The notes below the pieces were generated by a model that saw nothing but the letters and a program-made list of their open reading frames with translations, ran no database searches and was not told where the DNA came from. A DNA stretch of 64,000 bases. Source: a virus. Lineage: Duplodnaviria > Caudoviricetes. Location: positions 1,158 to 65,157 of the IMG/VR virus record IMGVR_UViG_3300009604_004140; one strand, written 5' to 3'. The translations under genes were made by a program, and so were the position numbers. Of this stretch, positions 29,438 to 45,501 are shown in pieces. The number at the start of each line of letters is the position of its first letter. The stretch's first letter is position 1.

Positions 29438-30394
29438 TTAATTAATGCCCATGCTTTGGTTAGTTTTATTTATACTTTCGTGAGCTGGCCCTAGGCCGGA
29501 TACGGCCCTTATCGCATCAATATTTTCTGGAACAACATCACTTTCCTGATGAATGGCTTGTATATACATCAGTTTGTTGCCCCATACTCCAATGGTGTCG
29601 CTCCAAACGCACACTTCTGGCATGTCACCCCTGCTCCGGCCAAGGTCTTTGGCGTATTCCATAATCTCGGCTGTCGATCTTATGCCGTCAACATTATGTA
29701 CAACGCGAACTCTTGTTGTGTTCTTGAATAGACTTACAATCTCGTCAATAGTAGGTGTGGTTTGGAGATCAACAGTAATGCTGTGCATATGCATTAATGT
29801 GGTGGGAACAGATATAGAGGTAGTAAATATCTCCAAGCTGGGCATTACCGTTCTTACGTCTGGACCATGATGAGACGGAACCACCAAGTGCGGCACAAGG
29901 GCATTAATGGGTCCATGATATATGTCCCAAGGGTCAGCGGCCCTTCTGATCATTGTGGCGTGTACTTTGTCTATTAAATAATTATCATCTAAAGCTTTCA
30001 GTGTTCTGCATAGTCCCGTTGTATTACAGCTAACCACACGGAGGAATTTAGAACAGGCAACGTCAGCATAGTTGCATTGGGCAACAAAACTAGGGGCCAC
30101 CTCTGGCTTTTCTCCTCCTTGAAAGACGGCCTTTATATCCATGTCTTCATATGTTCTTTTGTTACTCGCCCCGATTCCTTTGGGAGTGCAATCCACGACT
30201 ACATCAATTTTATCGAGAAGGTGATGCAGCTTTTTTATCGGAAATATAGGAATGTCTTTTCTTTCAGCGGCTTCTATCTTATAATTATAGGTATTTGCAG
30301 TAACACCTATTAGCTCCATATCGTCTTGTAGCAATACAGCGTCGGCTACACGCTTTCCTATTGTTCCATACCCAACCACTCCGACTTTAATCAT
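29438..30394 (-). CDS. gap: Type II (archaeal-type) glyceraldehyde-3-phosphate dehydrogenase
   Basis: GYGTIGKRVADAV, FQGGEK, VVSCNTTGL, RRAADP, PSHHGPDV, PTTLMH, HQESDVVPENIDAIRA. Start MIKVG at 30394. Confidence 0.9.
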   Translation of the reverse strand: MIKVGVVGYGTIGKRVADAVLLQDDMELIGVTANTYNYKIEAAERKDIPIFPIKKLHHLLDKIDVVVDCTPKGIGASNKRTYEDMDIKAVFQGGEKPEVAPSFVAQCNYADVACSKFLRVVSCNTTGLCRTLKALDDNYLIDKVHATMIRRAADPWDIYHGPINALVPHLVVPSHHGPDVRTVMPSLEIFTTSISVPTTLMHMHSITVDLQTTPTIDEIVSLFKNTTRVRVVHNVDGIRSTAEIMEYAKDLGRSRGDMPEVCVWSDTIGVWGNKLMYIQAIHQESDVVPENIDAIRAVSGLGPAHESINKTNQSMGIN

Positions 30395-30401
30395 ACATGT
30401 C

Positions 30402-30605
30402 TCACGATTTAAGAGGCCAAAAAACATGACCGCACAGAACACCAATTGCAAAAGATATTATAGGGTGTTCACAGGATATTGCATATATTGCATAACTAAT
30501 TGTGGCATTTAAATCTTTAGCAAAAAACATAACCGCAACATCCCATATGAAGATGGTGCAAAAGACAAGGATAACTAAAAATTTAGTAACATTTAAAAAG
30601 TCCAT
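30402..30605 (-). CDS. Small membrane protein (2 TM)
   Basis: Start MDFLNV at 30605; hydrophobic; ends LCGHVFWP. Confidence 0.6.
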   Translation of the reverse strand: MDFLNVTKFLVILVFCTIFIWDVAVMFFAKDLNATISYAIYAISCEHPIISFAIGVLCGHVFWPLKS

Positions 30606-30949
30606 TAGTCTACCCCCATAGTGAAGGTGATATTGTCCTTTTCTTCTTCGAGAATCCTTTGCTTTTCTTTCTGGCATTCCGGGCAAGCATCGTAAAACTT
30701 ATCAACATGCGGTGCCACGAAATGATGAACTCTTAAAATACCCACATTTAAATCGTTTTGATTTATGGCGAGCCGGGACTGCCCAGACATCAACATTGAC
30801 ATCGCGCTGTACATGTTTTTCTTAAACTTTTCGTTTTCTGCTACTGCTGCGGTATCCTTCTTGGGGATATTTGTATACACAGTGTATCCCACAACCAAAG
30901 TAGTAACTAAATTTAACAATAAAAGAAAAATAATTATTCTGCTTTTCAT
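30605..30949 (-). CDS. Membrane-anchored hypothetical protein
   Basis: N-terminal TM segment; HH..PH...CPEC. Confidence 0.55.
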   Translation of the reverse strand: MKSRIIIFLLLLNLVTTLVVGYTVYTNIPKKDTAAVAENEKFKKNMYSAMSMLMSGQSRLAINQNDLNVGILRVHHFVAPHVDKFYDACPECQKEKQRILEEEKDNITFTMGVD

Positions 30950-30976
30950 TTGATGTGTGCCTCCCTAAGAAATGTT

Positions 30977-31255
30977 TTACACAGAGACTTCTAATTCTTT
31001 ATCGAACGAACATTGGGCATCATGCGCCACCTTGCAAGCCTCATAGGATTCAGCGTTAAGGGCCCTGTATTCGCCCGTGTGCCACTTCTTATTGTTGCTT
31101 CCATCGAATGTCATACAATTACATGCGAATTTAACTTGAACATAGTCTTTTTCTTTTTGCACAACCTGCGCAATAGAGAAATCGTGTCAGTCAAAGGGCT
31201 GTTTTCCTTCAAGGGGCTTCTCAGTTCTTCGTAACCAGTCTCCAATATTAGCCAT
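30977..31255 (-). CDS. Candidate selenoprotein (92 aa, in-frame UGA at codon 23)
   Basis: RBS AAGGAG then ATG 31255; MANIGDWLRRTEKPLEGKQPFD-UGA-HDFSIAQVVQKEKDYVQVKFACNC...; in frame with track ORF 30977..31162; hairpin immediately 3' of UGA. Confidence 0.6.
31150..31181 (-). promoter_or_regulatory. Putative bacterial SECIS hairpin
   Basis: UGA CACGA UUUCU CUA UUGCGC AGGUU GUGCAA AA AGAAA: upper stem UUGCGC/GUGCAA, GGU-containing loop ~20 nt after UGA, lower stem UUUCU/AGAAA. Confidence 0.55.
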
Positions 31256-31305
31256 TTCTTTCTCCTTTTAGTTATATAATGTAGGTATTTGTCAATAAGT
31301 ACCTA

Positions 31306-31629
31306 CTAAACCTGAAAACTACTTCCGCACCCACAGCTTTTTGTCGCGCTAGGATTATCAAAAGTAAAGCCCCGTCTGGAAATATCATTATAATAGTCCA
31401 GTACAGTTCCCTCTAAGTAGAGAGCACTCTTTTTATCTACAATAACGTCTACTCCGTGCTGATGAGATAGCGTGTCTTTTTGTTCATCGTATTCACTACC
31501 TACCGTTAGGTCATACTGAAAACCAGAACAACCGCCTCCTTGAACAGCAATTCTTAAATATTTTTCTTCGGTGTCCTCAAGATACTTTTTAGCCTCGGCT
31601 GCTGCGGTTTCTGTTAGTTTAATTGTCAT
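31306..31629 (-). CDS. iscA: HesB/IscA/ErpA A-type Fe-S carrier
   Basis: IKLTETAA, LRIAVQGGGCSGFQY, NPSATKSCGCGSSF. Start 31629. Confidence 0.92.
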   Translation of the reverse strand: MTIKLTETAAAEAKKYLEDTEEKYLRIAVQGGGCSGFQYDLTVGSEYDEQKDTLSHQHGVDVIVDKKSALYLEGTVLDYYNDISRRGFTFDNPSATKSCGCGSSFQV

Positions 31630-31780
31630 CAGAGCCTCTTGCTGGCACAAGAATTCGTCCATTCTTTCTATACAAACCTTTTCTTTTATAATAATAAATC
31701 TCCCCAGTCTTGGGGTCTTCATACGCATAGTAACGCTTAGATTTTACATATTCAAAAATAGCTTTTATATATTTATTCAT
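31619..31780 (-). CDS. 53-aa small protein (not in ORF track)
   Basis: MNKYIKAIFEYVKSKRYYAYEDPKTGEIYYYKRKGLYRKNGRILVPARGSDDN; ATG overlaps the DUF1501 stop (TAATG) and the ORF fills the gap. Confidence 0.6.
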   Translation of the reverse strand: MNKYIKAIFEYVKSKRYYAYEDPKTGEIYYYKRKGLYRKNGRILVPARGSDDN

Positions 31781-33036
31781 TATAAAATTACCTTCGCTTC
31801 ACCTTCTAGTAAGTATCGTGGACGACCACCATTGTCTACTCTTTGAATATTCTTAGAAATTCCAAAGTGATCAAACATGGTGGCAGCTACGTCGATAGGC
31901 CCAAAGGGACTTTCAGATGGGGTATAGGACTTGTCGGCCTTCCCTACAACCCTGCCGCTGTCATATCTTCCACCCGACATAAGCATTGTGGAAATCGAGG
32001 GCCAATGATCGCGGCCCGCATTGGCGTTAAGTTTGGTACGGCCAAATTCACCAGTGACAATCAAGAGAATCTTTTCATTAAGACCTCTTTGCTGCACGTC
32101 TTCTACAAAAGCCGCAAGAGCTTTGTCTATAGGGGGAACTCTTCCCTTAAGTGCGTTTGCGATGTTGCTATGCATGTCCCAACCACCATAATTGATAGTA
32201 ACAAACCTTGTGCCAAACTGACATAAGCGGCGAGCCAATAGCAACTGCTTTCCAATCGCCGTATCTCCATAGGCTTCTTTTGTTTTGGGGTCTTCTTTAT
32301 CCAAATTGAATGCGTCTTTGGCTGTTCCAAGGATTACGTCAAATGCCTGCTGATTGAATTTTGTAACAGAGTCTGCTGATGGACTAGGAATATTAACACC
32401 TTCAAGTGATTTTAATAGTTCATTCCTATTTGCGAATCTCTCAATGTCTACTCTGGGCGTTAGGTTATCTTTGTTTGAAGGGTCGAAGGGTTTGTATGCT
32501 CCGCCCAACCACGCTGGATCTTCACCTTCTATCCTGCCCTGTTTAACATATGTAGGAACTCCGTTTTTGGGGTTGTTGGCACCATAGACAGCAGACACGA
32601 TAGACCCATGAGATGGGAACATAGAGTTAGATGTTTGACTTCGTTCTTTGTTGTGATGGGAAGTCATGACCCAGTGCGTAGCCTGTCTGTGAGAAGAGTC
32701 TCCGTGAGTAAAGGAGTCTACAACGTTGAGGCTGGGAGCTTGCTTGATTAGATTTTGCCAATGAGAACCAAAAGCCATTCCGGTTGGCTTGTCCACCAAA
32801 GCGCCACCCACAGACCTGTATTCAGAAGGAACGCTATCCTCTTTTGGGGCGTGGAATGTTTCAAATTGTGTCGGACCTCCCCCCAGCCATACCCACACGA
32901 CAGAGCTATCTTTAAGTTCTTGCGCCTCTTCCTGACCCATAGCAATATCAGAAAGCCCTAGAGAGGACATCCCTGCCCCAATACTGCCTATCCTTAGAAA
33001 GTCACGTCTGTTTGAATAAAAGTCAAGCATTTTCAC
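31780..33036 (-). CDS. DUF1501-family protein with Tat signal peptide
   Basis: NRRDFLRIG; WLGGGPTQFETF; LLARRLCQFGTRFV; GGWDMH; GEFGRT; GRDHWP. Confidence 0.9.
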   Translation of the reverse strand: MKMLDFYSNRRDFLRIGSIGAGMSSLGLSDIAMGQEEAQELKDSSVVWVWLGGGPTQFETFHAPKEDSVPSEYRSVGGALVDKPTGMAFGSHWQNLIKQAPSLNVVDSFTHGDSSHRQATHWVMTSHHNKERSQTSNSMFPSHGSIVSAVYGANNPKNGVPTYVKQGRIEGEDPAWLGGAYKPFDPSNKDNLTPRVDIERFANRNELLKSLEGVNIPSPSADSVTKFNQQAFDVILGTAKDAFNLDKEDPKTKEAYGDTAIGKQLLLARRLCQFGTRFVTINYGGWDMHSNIANALKGRVPPIDKALAAFVEDVQQRGLNEKILLIVTGEFGRTKLNANAGRDHWPSISTMLMSGGRYDSGRVVGKADKSYTPSESPFGPIDVAATMFDHFGISKNIQRVDNGGRPRYLLEGEAKVIL

Positions 33037-33056: not shown

Positions 33057-35252
33057 CTAAATGAGTTCGCAAACCCCTCCGCTGCAAGCCCACTCTTGTT
33101 CTGGTTCTACATTGTCTTTTTCTTCGATTATCTGCGTATAATCTACTTTATTATATTCTCTTTTTAAATCAACCCATTCTTTCCAGTTGTAAACATCTTT
33201 CATACAATAGGTTAAATTCTTAACATCTGAATCCATATATTTTCTAGCAAATTTCTTGCATCTTGCTATCCAGTCTCTCTTTGATGCCCCTTTTATTCTT
33301 GACCCAACGCCAAGAAGGGCATCGCATGCAGCCCATAGGTTGTCTTCCCATAAGTCAAGGGCCACTTCGATGAGACCGCTAACAAACATGGCACCATCTC
33401 CGTAGTATGCTACCTGTTCGCTGGGCAAGTAAATTGTTGTGAAGGGGGCTTGAGGGTAATCTTTATCCCCACTTACTGGCAAAAGAGAGATCCCACAAAA
33501 ATATTTTTTATTTTTATATATAAATTTCTCTATCTCGTCCCATTCATCCGGTTTAACATTAATAGTATTGGAAACATTATGGTTCAACCAAGGCTTTGTG
33601 CATAGGGCATCTGTTTTTCCAACCATAACCCAATTCTGTTGCGTCCCTTTTACATACCCCAAAAGGGTTAGTGCATCAATCTGATTTTTGGTTTTAGAAC
33701 CCGGAGGAACCTCTATGCAGAAAGAAATTACGTCGTCGCTGTCATTGGCAGACCATACCGATTCTTCGCAAGCCCTCGGATTTATTTTTTTGAAGTATCC
33801 ATAAATTTCTTCCATCTTATTAGCCTGTACGCGTCGTATATAGCGCTTGGCATGATGAGGATGAATACCAGAGCTAGTACCAAGGATACAACTAGAAGTT
33901 CCTTCAGGCTTGACACAAGTAGTCCTAGCTGCCTGATTAATTCCGACCTTCTTCGCCAGCTCTTTATTGGTTTGTTTGACAATCCGGGCCCCCTTTTTCT
34001 GTACAGCTCCGTTAAGACATATCTCATGTTGTTCCATAACGCCTGTCATGGAAACCCCCAAGAGTGCCTCTCGCTGCAAAATTCTTTCGCTTACCTCTCC
34101 TAGATATGGAAGGTCTGTAAAGCCAGCTTGAAGGGTTCCTATTATAGCTGCTGCTCGGCACGCCTCATAAAAGTCTTCCTCTGTTTTTACTTTAGCGCAA
34201 TTAATAGTGCTTAAATTGCAGGCTTGCCACCCAGTTTTTCCAGTTTTTTCATCTACCGGGTACATTCCAATTTCTACACAGGGGTTAACTATGAGTTCGG
34301 TAGAGTCTGACCACACAAAACCCGGCTCTCCAAACTCTCTCACGGACTCCATCAAGGAATGGAACTGCTCTGGGGTTGTCTTATCTCTTACTAAAAGGGC
34401 TGAGTTATTTGATCTTCCTCTTTGAGGGTTTTCGTGAAACCAGTTTCCGGTTTTTGCCGTTGCCATCTCTTCGTCGTCGGGACTGAACAAACAAATCGTT
34501 GCACTGCGTCGAACTCCCCCTGATATTACCGCGTCCGCAGAATGCATTATAATATCATAGGCTTCAATGGGGGTTAGTCTGCGAAGGGATTTAGCAGCGA
34601 ATGTAGAATTCTCAATCGCACGATCAAGAATTTTTTTAATGTTACGCAATGCCTTCTTTAGGGGTGCTGCTCCGGGAGCTTTTCCGGAACTGGAACTCAA
34701 TTCGGTCCCCGCTGCTCTGATTTGAGAGAAGTCAAACGCCACATTCCTTCCCGAATATTCAGGAAAGATTTCATTTTGATCAAAATAACTACTTATCAGA
34801 ACCCCGACCGCATCTGACCAGCCTTCGATGCTGTCTTCAATAATGAACTTTTTATTAGCCCTTTTGGAAATGGGCGCAAAGTAAGGAAGCTGGTCTATGT
34901 GATGCTTTTGCACAGAGAATCCGGTGCCACAGCCACACAATAGTAGATACATGCATTCTTGAAAGAATCTTAATCTATCGCAGTAAGAAGAAATGCAGTT
35001 ATAGATTCTAGCATTATGCTTAAAGGTGGGCCCTCCTCCGAATTGCAAAGCTCTTTGAGACCCAAGGATACGCTTTTTAAACATCATGTCATAGGCCCAA
35101 GCAATGTCTCCATTGACTTCTGGGTATTTTTCATACATCATACCCATGACCCTATCGACGGACTCCCTCCATGTCTCCCTTCTCTTCTTTTCGGGAATCC
35201 AACGGGCGTACCTGCCAACAAAAGTATAGTTTTGGAGTTCCGAAACCGACAT
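33057..35252 (-). CDS. nrdJ: Class II (B12-dependent) ribonucleotide reductase
   Basis: RYAR..RRETW, YNC, GCGTGFSV, GGVRRSA, GEPG, NPCVEI, CNL, VKPEGT, C-terminal CSGGVC. Confidence 0.9.
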   Translation of the reverse strand: MSVSELQNYTFVGRYARWIPEKKRRETWRESVDRVMGMMYEKYPEVNGDIAWAYDMMFKKRILGSQRALQFGGGPTFKHNARIYNCISSYCDRLRFFQECMYLLLCGCGTGFSVQKHHIDQLPYFAPISKRANKKFIIEDSIEGWSDAVGVLISSYFDQNEIFPEYSGRNVAFDFSQIRAAGTELSSSSGKAPGAAPLKKALRNIKKILDRAIENSTFAAKSLRRLTPIEAYDIIMHSADAVISGGVRRSATICLFSPDDEEMATAKTGNWFHENPQRGRSNNSALLVRDKTTPEQFHSLMESVREFGEPGFVWSDSTELIVNPCVEIGMYPVDEKTGKTGWQACNLSTINCAKVKTEEDFYEACRAAAIIGTLQAGFTDLPYLGEVSERILQREALLGVSMTGVMEQHEICLNGAVQKKGARIVKQTNKELAKKVGINQAARTTCVKPEGTSSCILGTSSGIHPHHAKRYIRRVQANKMEEIYGYFKKINPRACEESVWSANDSDDVISFCIEVPPGSKTKNQIDALTLLGYVKGTQQNWVMVGKTDALCTKPWLNHNVSNTINVKPDEWDEIEKFIYKNKKYFCGISLLPVSGDKDYPQAPFTTIYLPSEQVAYYGDGAMFVSGLIEVALDLWEDNLWAACDALLGVGSRIKGASKRDWIARCKKFARKYMDSDVKNLTYCMKDVYNWKEWVDLKREYNKVDYTQIIEEKDNVEPEQEWACSGGVCELI

Positions 35253-40976: not shown

Positions 40977-41155
40977 TGGAAGGGCAGGGATTACATTTAG
41001 ATTACCTGCAACGTTTCACGGACTGATATGTTAATCCCTTGCGGGATGCCGTTACTTTGTACCACTCACTAAGCCCTCAGTCAGTTGACCCTTGATCCTA
41101 GTGCCGTGTGCCTTGTCCGCTCAGTCTTGCTCGGACTCGTTTTCAGCCACCTTCC
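40977..41155 (-). ncRNA. tRNA-like structured RNA with an expanded cloverleaf (~179 nt)
   Basis: GGAAGG/CCUUCC-A acceptor-like stem; UGGCUGA...GG..AAGGC D-arm-like; CACGG/CCGUG anticodon-like stem enclosing 82 nt; GCAGG/CCUGC T-stem; followed by U10. Confidence 0.7.
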
Positions 41156-45140: not shown

Positions 45141-45162
45141 TTGGATTTCCTTTTTTTATAAG

Positions 45163-45501
45163 TGGAGGCGGCGGGATTCGAACCCGCGTGCTGCCATGCT
45201 TCCATAACCGCTTCTACATGGTTAGTTTATTGTATTTGCACAACAAACAAAGCTATCCGATTATCGGAGTCAGGGTTGCATACAACCATCAGAGATATAG
45301 ATCGAGTATCTCCTTTCTCTATTCGAGTTATCGAAGTCAACACAATTTGGTAAAAGGGCTTGTGTGGCCCCCGCAGCTTAAGCTGCCATTGCTAAACTAG
45401 GTTCGGCAAGTAAAAATTTAGTCAACTTTTATAGTGGCCCGTTGACCAACCACTCCATGCAACTATTATTTCCACATTCAGTCGATGCCAAATTCGCCCC
45501 C
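45163..45501 (-). ncRNA. ssrA: tmRNA, tag (A)AEPSLAMAA
   Basis: 5' GGGGGCGAAUUUGGCAUCGAC; 3' GCGGGUUCGAAUCCCGCCGCCUCCA; G3-U70 pair; tag ORF GCC GAA CCU AGU UUA GCA AUG GCA GCU UAA at 45407-45378; CCA not fully encoded. Confidence 0.93.

Follow-up and report, generated by a model that had tools for sequence, protein, structure and literature searches.

Introduction

Bacteria insert selenocysteine (Sec) by means of Sec-tRNA(Sec) in complex with SelB and GTP, together with a hairpin that lies within the mRNA, known as the selenocysteine insertion sequence (SECIS), and the mechanism proposed below is built on this pathway. A guanosine in the apical loop of the hairpin serves as a criterion in the bSECISearch model. 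We describe here a small gene on the minus strand of a 64,000-nucleotide stretch of viral DNA (the window: positions 1,158 to 65,157 of IMG/VR record IMGVR_UViG_3300009604_004140; Duplodnaviria, Caudoviricetes), whose reading frame is interrupted once, by a UGA that is followed by a SECIS-like hairpin. The source of the window is a 65-kb viral record, 43% complete according to CheckV, of an uncultured marine phage. All coordinates are those of the window unless a locus is named.

By the bacterial rule, as given in an excerpt of PMC10778597, the apical loop of a SECIS lies 16-37 nt from the UGA, and a figure legend in PMC2398784 puts a G in that loop. According to part of the text of PMC4607533, a 5/6-bp hairpin that is common in Epsilonproteobacteria lies a few nucleotides past the TGA and is like the minimal E. 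coli element. As for viral selenoproteins, an excerpt of a 2021 recoding review names only two poxvirus GPx genes (PMC8310308). A term search of a 2026 review of the prokaryotic selenoproteome returned no mention of phage or virus (PMC13188914), and no phage selenoprotein was found in print in the literature searched.

The locus compares with these systems as follows. The conserved recoding site is real, in that a single frame is translated through a UGA that is strictly conserved and that has a covarying hairpin after it. We consider it likely that Sec is inserted by a SelB-dependent route at this UGA, codon 23, of a single 92-residue phage polypeptide; the identity of the residue, the involvement of SelB and the role of the protein are what we infer from these patterns. 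The mechanism is of a known kind, and what is new is the bacteriophage that carries it, the protein family and the absence of a Cys form.

Results

Reading frame and start region

On the minus strand, positions 31255..30977 of the window hold 92 codons followed by TAA (30979-30977), and the sole break in this frame is a TGA at 31189-31187, codon 23. The list of open reading frames (ORFs) made for the window contains just the 61-codon part of it, which opens at GTG 31162 (30977..31162). The preliminary description of this DNA, made from the letters alone, had begun with that GTG-initiated ORF and pointed to an ATG at 31255 with AAGGAG upstream, to a single in-frame TGA between the two, and to the RNA letters that follow it. 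Inspection of the minus strand and translation of 31255..30977 bore out each of these observations: AAGGAG lies at 31267-31262, the TGA at 31189-31187 is the only interruption, and the letters 3' of the UGA are as they had been quoted. The features of the gene are:

30977..31255, minus strand: whole coding sequence, 92 codons plus TAA, with Sec predicted at codon 23 (from the translation reading through the TGA)
31187..31189, minus strand: in-frame UGA, predicted Sec codon 23, in the context GAC UGA CAC (from conservation in relatives)
31262..31267, minus strand: Shine-Dalgarno sequence AAGGAG, read directly, 6 nt upstream of the ATG at 31255-31253

Purine-rich sites, AAGGAG or AAGGA, also stand upstream of the equivalent ATG in most of the 27 relatives listed, and the homologues span residues 1-92 of the read-through protein.

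Conservation of the UGA codon

Local tblastn searches, with the post-UGA part of the protein as the query, gave 62 sources that span the site, and TGA was found at codon 23 in all 62. Several loci in this set are one contig counted twice; the sources represent 40 distinct genes, with identity down to 34%. A scan of metagenomes with two peptide patterns, neither of which includes codon 23, returned 38 loci at 34-99% identity, and the 37 that span codon 23 all have TGA there (39/39 when locus L011 and the window are included); the locus that ends before codon 23, L048, was left out of the count. Because 15 further loci came from a pattern that contains the TGA, the site-independent scan is the unbiased core of the evidence. 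Conservation of TGA at this codon across relatives, which the preliminary description had proposed as a check on its reading, was thus observed throughout.

In the first scan of IMG/VR, five loci sharing one sequence were obtained at 72% protein identity, in which codon 23 is again TGA and is surrounded by synonymous changes. The motif with TGA was present in 23 IMG/VR contigs, and the same motif with TGG, TGT or TGC in 0. It had been argued beforehand that Trp, Arg or Gly at the site in homologues would mark a nonsense mutation; among the relatives whose DNA was compared, no codon for any of the three was found there. The codon immediately before the UGA is also fixed, Asp22 being encoded by GAC in 37/37 distinct segments, and GAC makes up 48% of Asp codons across the window.

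The bare presence of a stop codon is all that speaks for a nonsense mutation in a pseudogene, or for an error of assembly. TGA stands at the same codon in the 40 distinct genes, which come from many samples, and purifying selection is seen on both sides of it. Contigs from four independent sequencing runs retain the TGA, one of them from a variant strain with 11 differences nearby, so that the sequencing error considered in the preliminary description was not borne out. We regard this explanation as refuted, with practically no probability left to it.

One reading frame across the UGA

Nucleotide diversity was calculated by codon position in 30 distinct segments. The values at positions 1, 2 and 3 were 0.24, 0.15 and 0.52 in codons 2-22, and 0.21, 0.19 and 0.48 in codons 24-48. 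Because third-position diversity exceeds that at positions 1 and 2, translation in this frame extends to the sequence before the UGA as well as to that after it. Variation in the 22 N-terminal codons, whose conservation had been singled out beforehand as something to verify, is mainly at third codon positions. An AlphaFold2 (AF2) model built from a 28-sequence alignment is a single domain (mean pLDDT 89.4, pTM 0.78), in which a strand formed by residues 7-10, before the UGA, comes together in a barrel with strands 29-34, 38-43, 55-59 and 63-65, followed by a helix at 68-81.

The same data bear on the possibility of two cistrons, namely a 22-codon leader that ends at the UGA and an ORF that starts from the GTG at codon 32, in the 3' arm of the hairpin, with the hairpin coupling or attenuating translation of the second ORF. 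Codon 32 is GTG in 29/37 distinct sequences, the gene calls of database proteins P0009 and P0012 are exactly this second ORF, and the AGG of the loop lies just 5' of the GTG. The spacing between AGG and GTG is just 2 nt, however, and codon 32 is GCG or GTC, neither of them a start codon, in the other 8/37; the clade of L017 has no ATG, GTG or TTG ahead of Met48. Codons 24-31 vary as coding sequence does, with H/Y, D/E and F/Y/W exchanges and free third positions, and the predicted fold requires strand 7-10 of the supposed leader. We consider two cistrons very unlikely.

Hairpin downstream of the UGA

The hairpin is defined as follows:

31157..31173, minus strand: SECIS-like hairpin, arms 31173-31167 and 31163-31157, GGU loop 31166-31164, conserved core of 6 bp (31172-31158)

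RNAalifold, applied to 26 distinct sequences, returned a single element, a 6-bp stem of 31172-31167 with 31163-31158 around the loop GGU, and minimum-energy folds gave the same hairpin in 6/6 representatives. The apical loop begins 20 nt past the UGA, inside the 16-37 nt of the bacterial rule. A hairpin had been predicted here from the sequence, and its stem and place held, while the loop proved to be the 3-nt GGU and not AGGUU, on a stem of 6-7 bp (RNAfold, RNAalifold). The lower stem, UUUCU/AGAAA, that had been drawn beneath it does exist in the window but is not conserved, with 41.5% of cells paired across 26 relatives.

In the 7-pair stem, 91% of cells were paired and three pairs had double changes; slid controls were 10-55% paired. 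The covariation score of the hairpin was reached by 0 of 500 shuffles. All five core pairs are intact in 37/37 distinct segments, and the loop is GGU in every one of these, which supplies the guanosine looked for in the bSECISearch model. The pair types among the 37 are, in order, UA in 23 and CG in 14; GC in 37; CG in 35 and GC in 2; AU in 21, GU in 10 and GC in 6; and CG in 37. On a maximum-likelihood (ML) tree made without the hairpin columns, switches between UA and CG occurred at least 3 times and between CG and GC once, and the AU/GU/GC pair changed at least 6 times while staying paired in 39/39 sequences. These are minimum parsimony figures, because the quick ML tree is short and partly supported. 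Conservation and covariation of the hairpin were what the preliminary description had suggested looking for. Codon choice is restricted as well, Gln30 being CAG in 37/37 (CAG is 40% of Gln codons) and Val31 GTT in 35/37; synonymous change is suppressed within and around the hairpin. When the phage hairpin and its flanking sequence were made into a covariance model, the model scored 78.5 bits at its own site in the window, where no second site was better than E 0.36.

Genetic code and tryptophan in database proteins

Of 73 long non-overlapping ORFs in the window, 18 end in TGA, many of them at overlapping ATGA-type junctions, and TGA is therefore an ordinary stop in this genome, as had been noted earlier. 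The same gene is itself terminated by TGA in homologues L030, L031 and L049. A crude scan of the window for other TGA-interrupted frames gave only rows without supporting features. ARAGORN reported no tRNA in the window. Five related viral records were inspected for tRNAs, and those looked at were for Leu, Arg, Ile, Glu, Asp and Met, none of them with the anticodon UCA.

Tryptophan (W) nevertheless stands at the UGA site in 13 full-length database proteins (P0002-P0008, P0011, P0017-P0021), as it would if TGA were a sense codon throughout the phage or its host (codes 4 or 25) and W were correct. Three of these proteins match letter for letter the translations of TGA-bearing DNA (P0004 and L017, P0007 and L022, P0018 and L026), and the contigs behind them use the standard code elsewhere. 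Because the matching DNA has TGA, the W in these three is the gene caller's code-4 reading of short contigs. With TGA ending 18/73 ORFs of the window and this gene in three homologues, no comparable TGA-interrupted frame in the window and no UCA anticodon seen, a TGA-sense code is largely refuted, and we find it scarcely credible.

The remaining database matches are truncated calls that begin after the UGA (P0009, P0012, P0016 and others), and none has Cys at the site. The call P0010 extends from the iscA region across the gene's first 22 codons, with the UGA as its stop. A phmmer search of the representative library gave 8 matches, consisting of family members, truncated calls, and P0014 and P0015; the last two are long repetitive proteins and were judged spurious. 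Public gene calls are systematically wrong at this locus, either truncating the gene or rendering the UGA as Trp.

Sec insertion and read-through without SelB

Several results weigh against Sec insertion and are collected here. No Cys-form homologue was found in 5.8 billion clustered proteins, 1.84 billion representatives, IMG/VR and 185,579 species genomes; most selenoprotein families include Cys homologues, which is usual and not obligatory. A true TGG form may exist among the other 10 W proteins, which are unmatched to DNA. Rfam returned no SECIS family for 30900-31350 of the window at E up to 10, with chance rows only, and the covariance model of the phage hairpin does not detect E. coli fdhF. 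Short hairpins score poorly in covariance-model searches. Bacterial SECIS elements are described as diverse in a portion of PMC9312934. The single-sequence folding energy was no better than that of shuffles (z -1.1 and -1.26); in the same shuffle test the genuine E. coli fdhF SECIS gave z -0.94. The hairpin is beyond chance by its conservation and covariation, not by its folding energy. The list of sequencing runs that carry the sequence contained no RNA data set. Finally, no tRNA-Sec match above the family cut-off was present in viral records G000-G005, and selA, selB and selD were not found in G000-G004, these records being fragments that are 37-52% complete. Because the phage records show none of the Sec machinery, the phage would depend on its host for it.

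Programmed read-through of the UGA without SelB would accommodate some of these results. A near-cognate tRNA, such as that for Trp, would decode the UGA with the hairpin as a stimulator, and the UGA would fix a low yield of the full-length protein beside a 22-residue peptide. In most sequences the base after the UGA is C, a context in which termination is leaky in E. coli; UGA read-through is used by phage Qbeta, and the phage records show no Sec machinery. Because no Cys form was found, there is no independent indication of the residue's chemistry. A need for Trp at this position, however, should have left TGG in some lineages, and it occurs in 0/62 sources and in 0 IMG/VR contigs versus 23 with TGA. 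The position of the hairpin and its G-bearing loop match bacterial SECIS elements, and an invariant Cys82 with near-invariant CxC and His residues suits a selenol/thiol site. On this evidence we think SelB-free read-through unlikely.

The proposal of a 92-residue phage selenoprotein that uses host machinery, put forward in the preliminary description, is supported by conservation of the UGA, the N-terminus and the hairpin. In SelB-dependent insertion, the host's Sec-tRNA(Sec)-SelB-GTP complex would bind the mRNA hairpin, with its GGU loop 20 nt past the UGA, during infection. At the ribosome, SelB would compete with release factor 2 in bringing in Sec. The phage would contribute the mRNA signal alone, and SelA, SelB, SelC and SelD would come from the host.

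Predicted protein

Thirteen positions are invariant in the 28 aligned sequences (M1, W7, R10, P14, F21, U23, Q30, V31, V41, M48, W58, Y63 and C82), and C45, C47 and H78 are nearly so. The most divergent clade (L044-L047, L052) is without the CxC motif and retains U23 and C82. Pfam returned 0 families for the read-through protein, and PHROGs and NCBIfam returned 0 for four database members.

The product is predicted to be a cytoplasmic SH3-like beta-barrel with a C-terminal helix. VIA-align comparisons of the AF2 model gave Z 5.5-6.7 with a root-mean-square deviation (rmsd) of 1.7-2.5 A across 55-68 residues; many matches tied at Z 5.5-6.5. The top match, 3fc3_A, had Z 6.7 and rmsd 1.9 A over 55 residues, and the tool warns that Z <8 may reflect a common arrangement. 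Foldseek gave weak matches to eL21/eL14/SH3 and nothing at E up to 0.001 in the PDB and BFVD. The likeness to SH3-like small beta-barrels (PsaE, NdhS, KOW domains, YorP and the Hpy99I N-domain) is at the level of the fold in the AF2 model only; their sequences are not similar to that of the phage protein, no selenoprotein is among them, and the C-terminal helix bearing His78 and Cys82 is extra in the phage protein.

A redox or metal/Fe-S role is proposed from the invariant Sec23 and Cys82 and the near-invariant Cys45, Cys47 and His78. The residue pattern suggests either a small redox protein, with a selenenylsulfide between Sec23 and Cys82, or a metal/Fe-S binding protein. In the model, the RT-like loop with U23 and the helix end with C82 could together form a selenol/thiol pair or a metal/Fe-S site. 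Its partners are probably the products of the auxiliary genes next to it (IscA-like, DUF1501).

Neighbouring genes and possible host

The genes around the selenoprotein gene are:

29438-30451, minus strand: GAPDH-like gene, bracketing the block
31306..31728, minus strand: IscA/HesB-like Fe-S assembly protein, upstream neighbour (Pfam PF01521, E 4e-21)
31780..33036, minus strand: DUF1501 protein with a Tat-type leader (Pfam PF07394, E 6e-61)
33057-35252, minus strand: B12-dependent (class II) ribonucleotide reductase-like gene, bracketing the block

The gene had earlier been placed after iscA in a block running from nrdJ to GAPDH, and the bracketing genes and the IscA-like neighbour agree with that placement. 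The window's IscA-like ORF has about 33 extra N-terminal residues relative to its relatives, which start with MTIKLTE, and its true start is probably an internal ATG.

DUF1501 genes with Tat-type leaders, together with genes for small secreted proteins, surround the gene at most related loci, and an IscA-like gene is nearby in several. Three DUF1501 paralogues are present in L030 (583-1890, 4240-5544 and 5563-6777), DUF1501 genes also flank the gene in L025, L054, L063 and others, and in L054 and L063 they directly adjoin it on both sides. In one clade (L026 3530-3988, L030 3503-3988, L032, L058, L064), a secreted Cys-rich protein is encoded directly upstream; its N-terminus is signal-like and is followed by consecutive repeats of the CKxC type, and in L030 it has a weak EF-hand match. 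In the U-Y-P-W clade (L035, L039, L059, L065), the downstream gene encodes a conserved protein, about 145 residues long and starting with MKLKRGQK.CKKC, for which Pfam has no match.

For the DUF1501 protein of the window, most of the nearest Atlas clusters are from Planctomycetota. Complete sets of Sec-insertion genes are reported for some planctomycetes in part of PMC4807772. From this similarity a planctomycete host is possible, as a lead only. A peptide scan of 185,579 species genomes found no cellular relatives of the protein; two matches of the DNA pattern in metagenome-assembled genomes, L050 and L051, were due to chance and encode no relatives. No GenBank phage matched the family by tblastn.

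Two other RNA features were observed on the minus strand of the window. A phage tmRNA gene lies at 45160-45501 (Rfam RF00023, 96.9 bits, E 1e-36), which ARAGORN did not report. At 40977-41155, 179 nt after a terminator have paired ends, GGAAGG/CCUUCC, followed by a T run (folding energy -55.5 kcal/mol, z -1.7). This 179-nt RNA was considered as a phage tRNA-Sec and rejected, since Rfam gave nothing for it at E up to 5 and G000 contained no tRNA-Sec match.

Discussion

The family is somewhat more probably than not confined to bacterial viruses and to the Sec form, with neither a Cys version nor a cellular homologue. If so, phages have evolved and maintained a Sec-dependent protein of their own, and have not merely borrowed selenoprotein genes from their hosts. 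A family in which Sec is obligatory would show bacteriophages exploiting the host SelB pathway, and its predicted SH3-like fold would be one not previously known for any selenoprotein. Replication would require hosts that have the Sec trait (marine Planctomycetota are a possibility) and a supply of selenium, which would tie viral infection to the availability of selenium in the ocean. Because hosts must decode Sec, the family could serve as a marker of host range. More Sec-only families may hide in viromes, because the standard search for Sec/Cys pairs cannot see them.

The seven selenoprotein families from the GOS marine data, as described in part of PMC2398784, resemble this one in being small marine proteins of unassigned function with a conserved TGA and a downstream hairpin. 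All seven, in contrast, were defined through Cys homologues, 10 to 807 for each (PMC2398784). A search of the GOS type would miss the phage family because it has no Cys homologue. The phage family is set apart from the GOS families by their published description in that source, rather than by their sequences.

The poxvirus GPx genes of molluscum contagiosum and fowlpox, in the account given in an excerpt of PMC8310308, are likewise virus genes that rely on host Sec machinery, and the fowlpox gene likewise has its SECIS within the coding region. They differ in belonging to eukaryotic viruses, in being captured cellular GPx genes and in having a SECIS of the eukaryotic type. The phage gene has a bacterial-type element, is carried by a bacterial virus and has no cellular homologue among those found.

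The closest likeness in the RNA is to E. coli fdhF, the formate dehydrogenase H gene, whose Sec codon is read by SelB. The fdhF loop is GGUC and lies 2 nt closer to the UGA, whereas the phage loop is GGU (3 nt), and fdhF has a bulged U, whereas the phage stem of 6-7 bp has no constant bulged U. The lower stem of the phage element is not conserved, the two proteins are unrelated, and the gene is carried by a phage. What the two share is a short hairpin within the ORF, right after the UGA, whose apical loop contains G and U. The letters UGACACG are common to both, and UUGC stands at an equal offset, followed by AGGU. The resemblance to fdhF pointed out in the preliminary description thus stands when the actual E. 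coli sequence is set beside the phage element.

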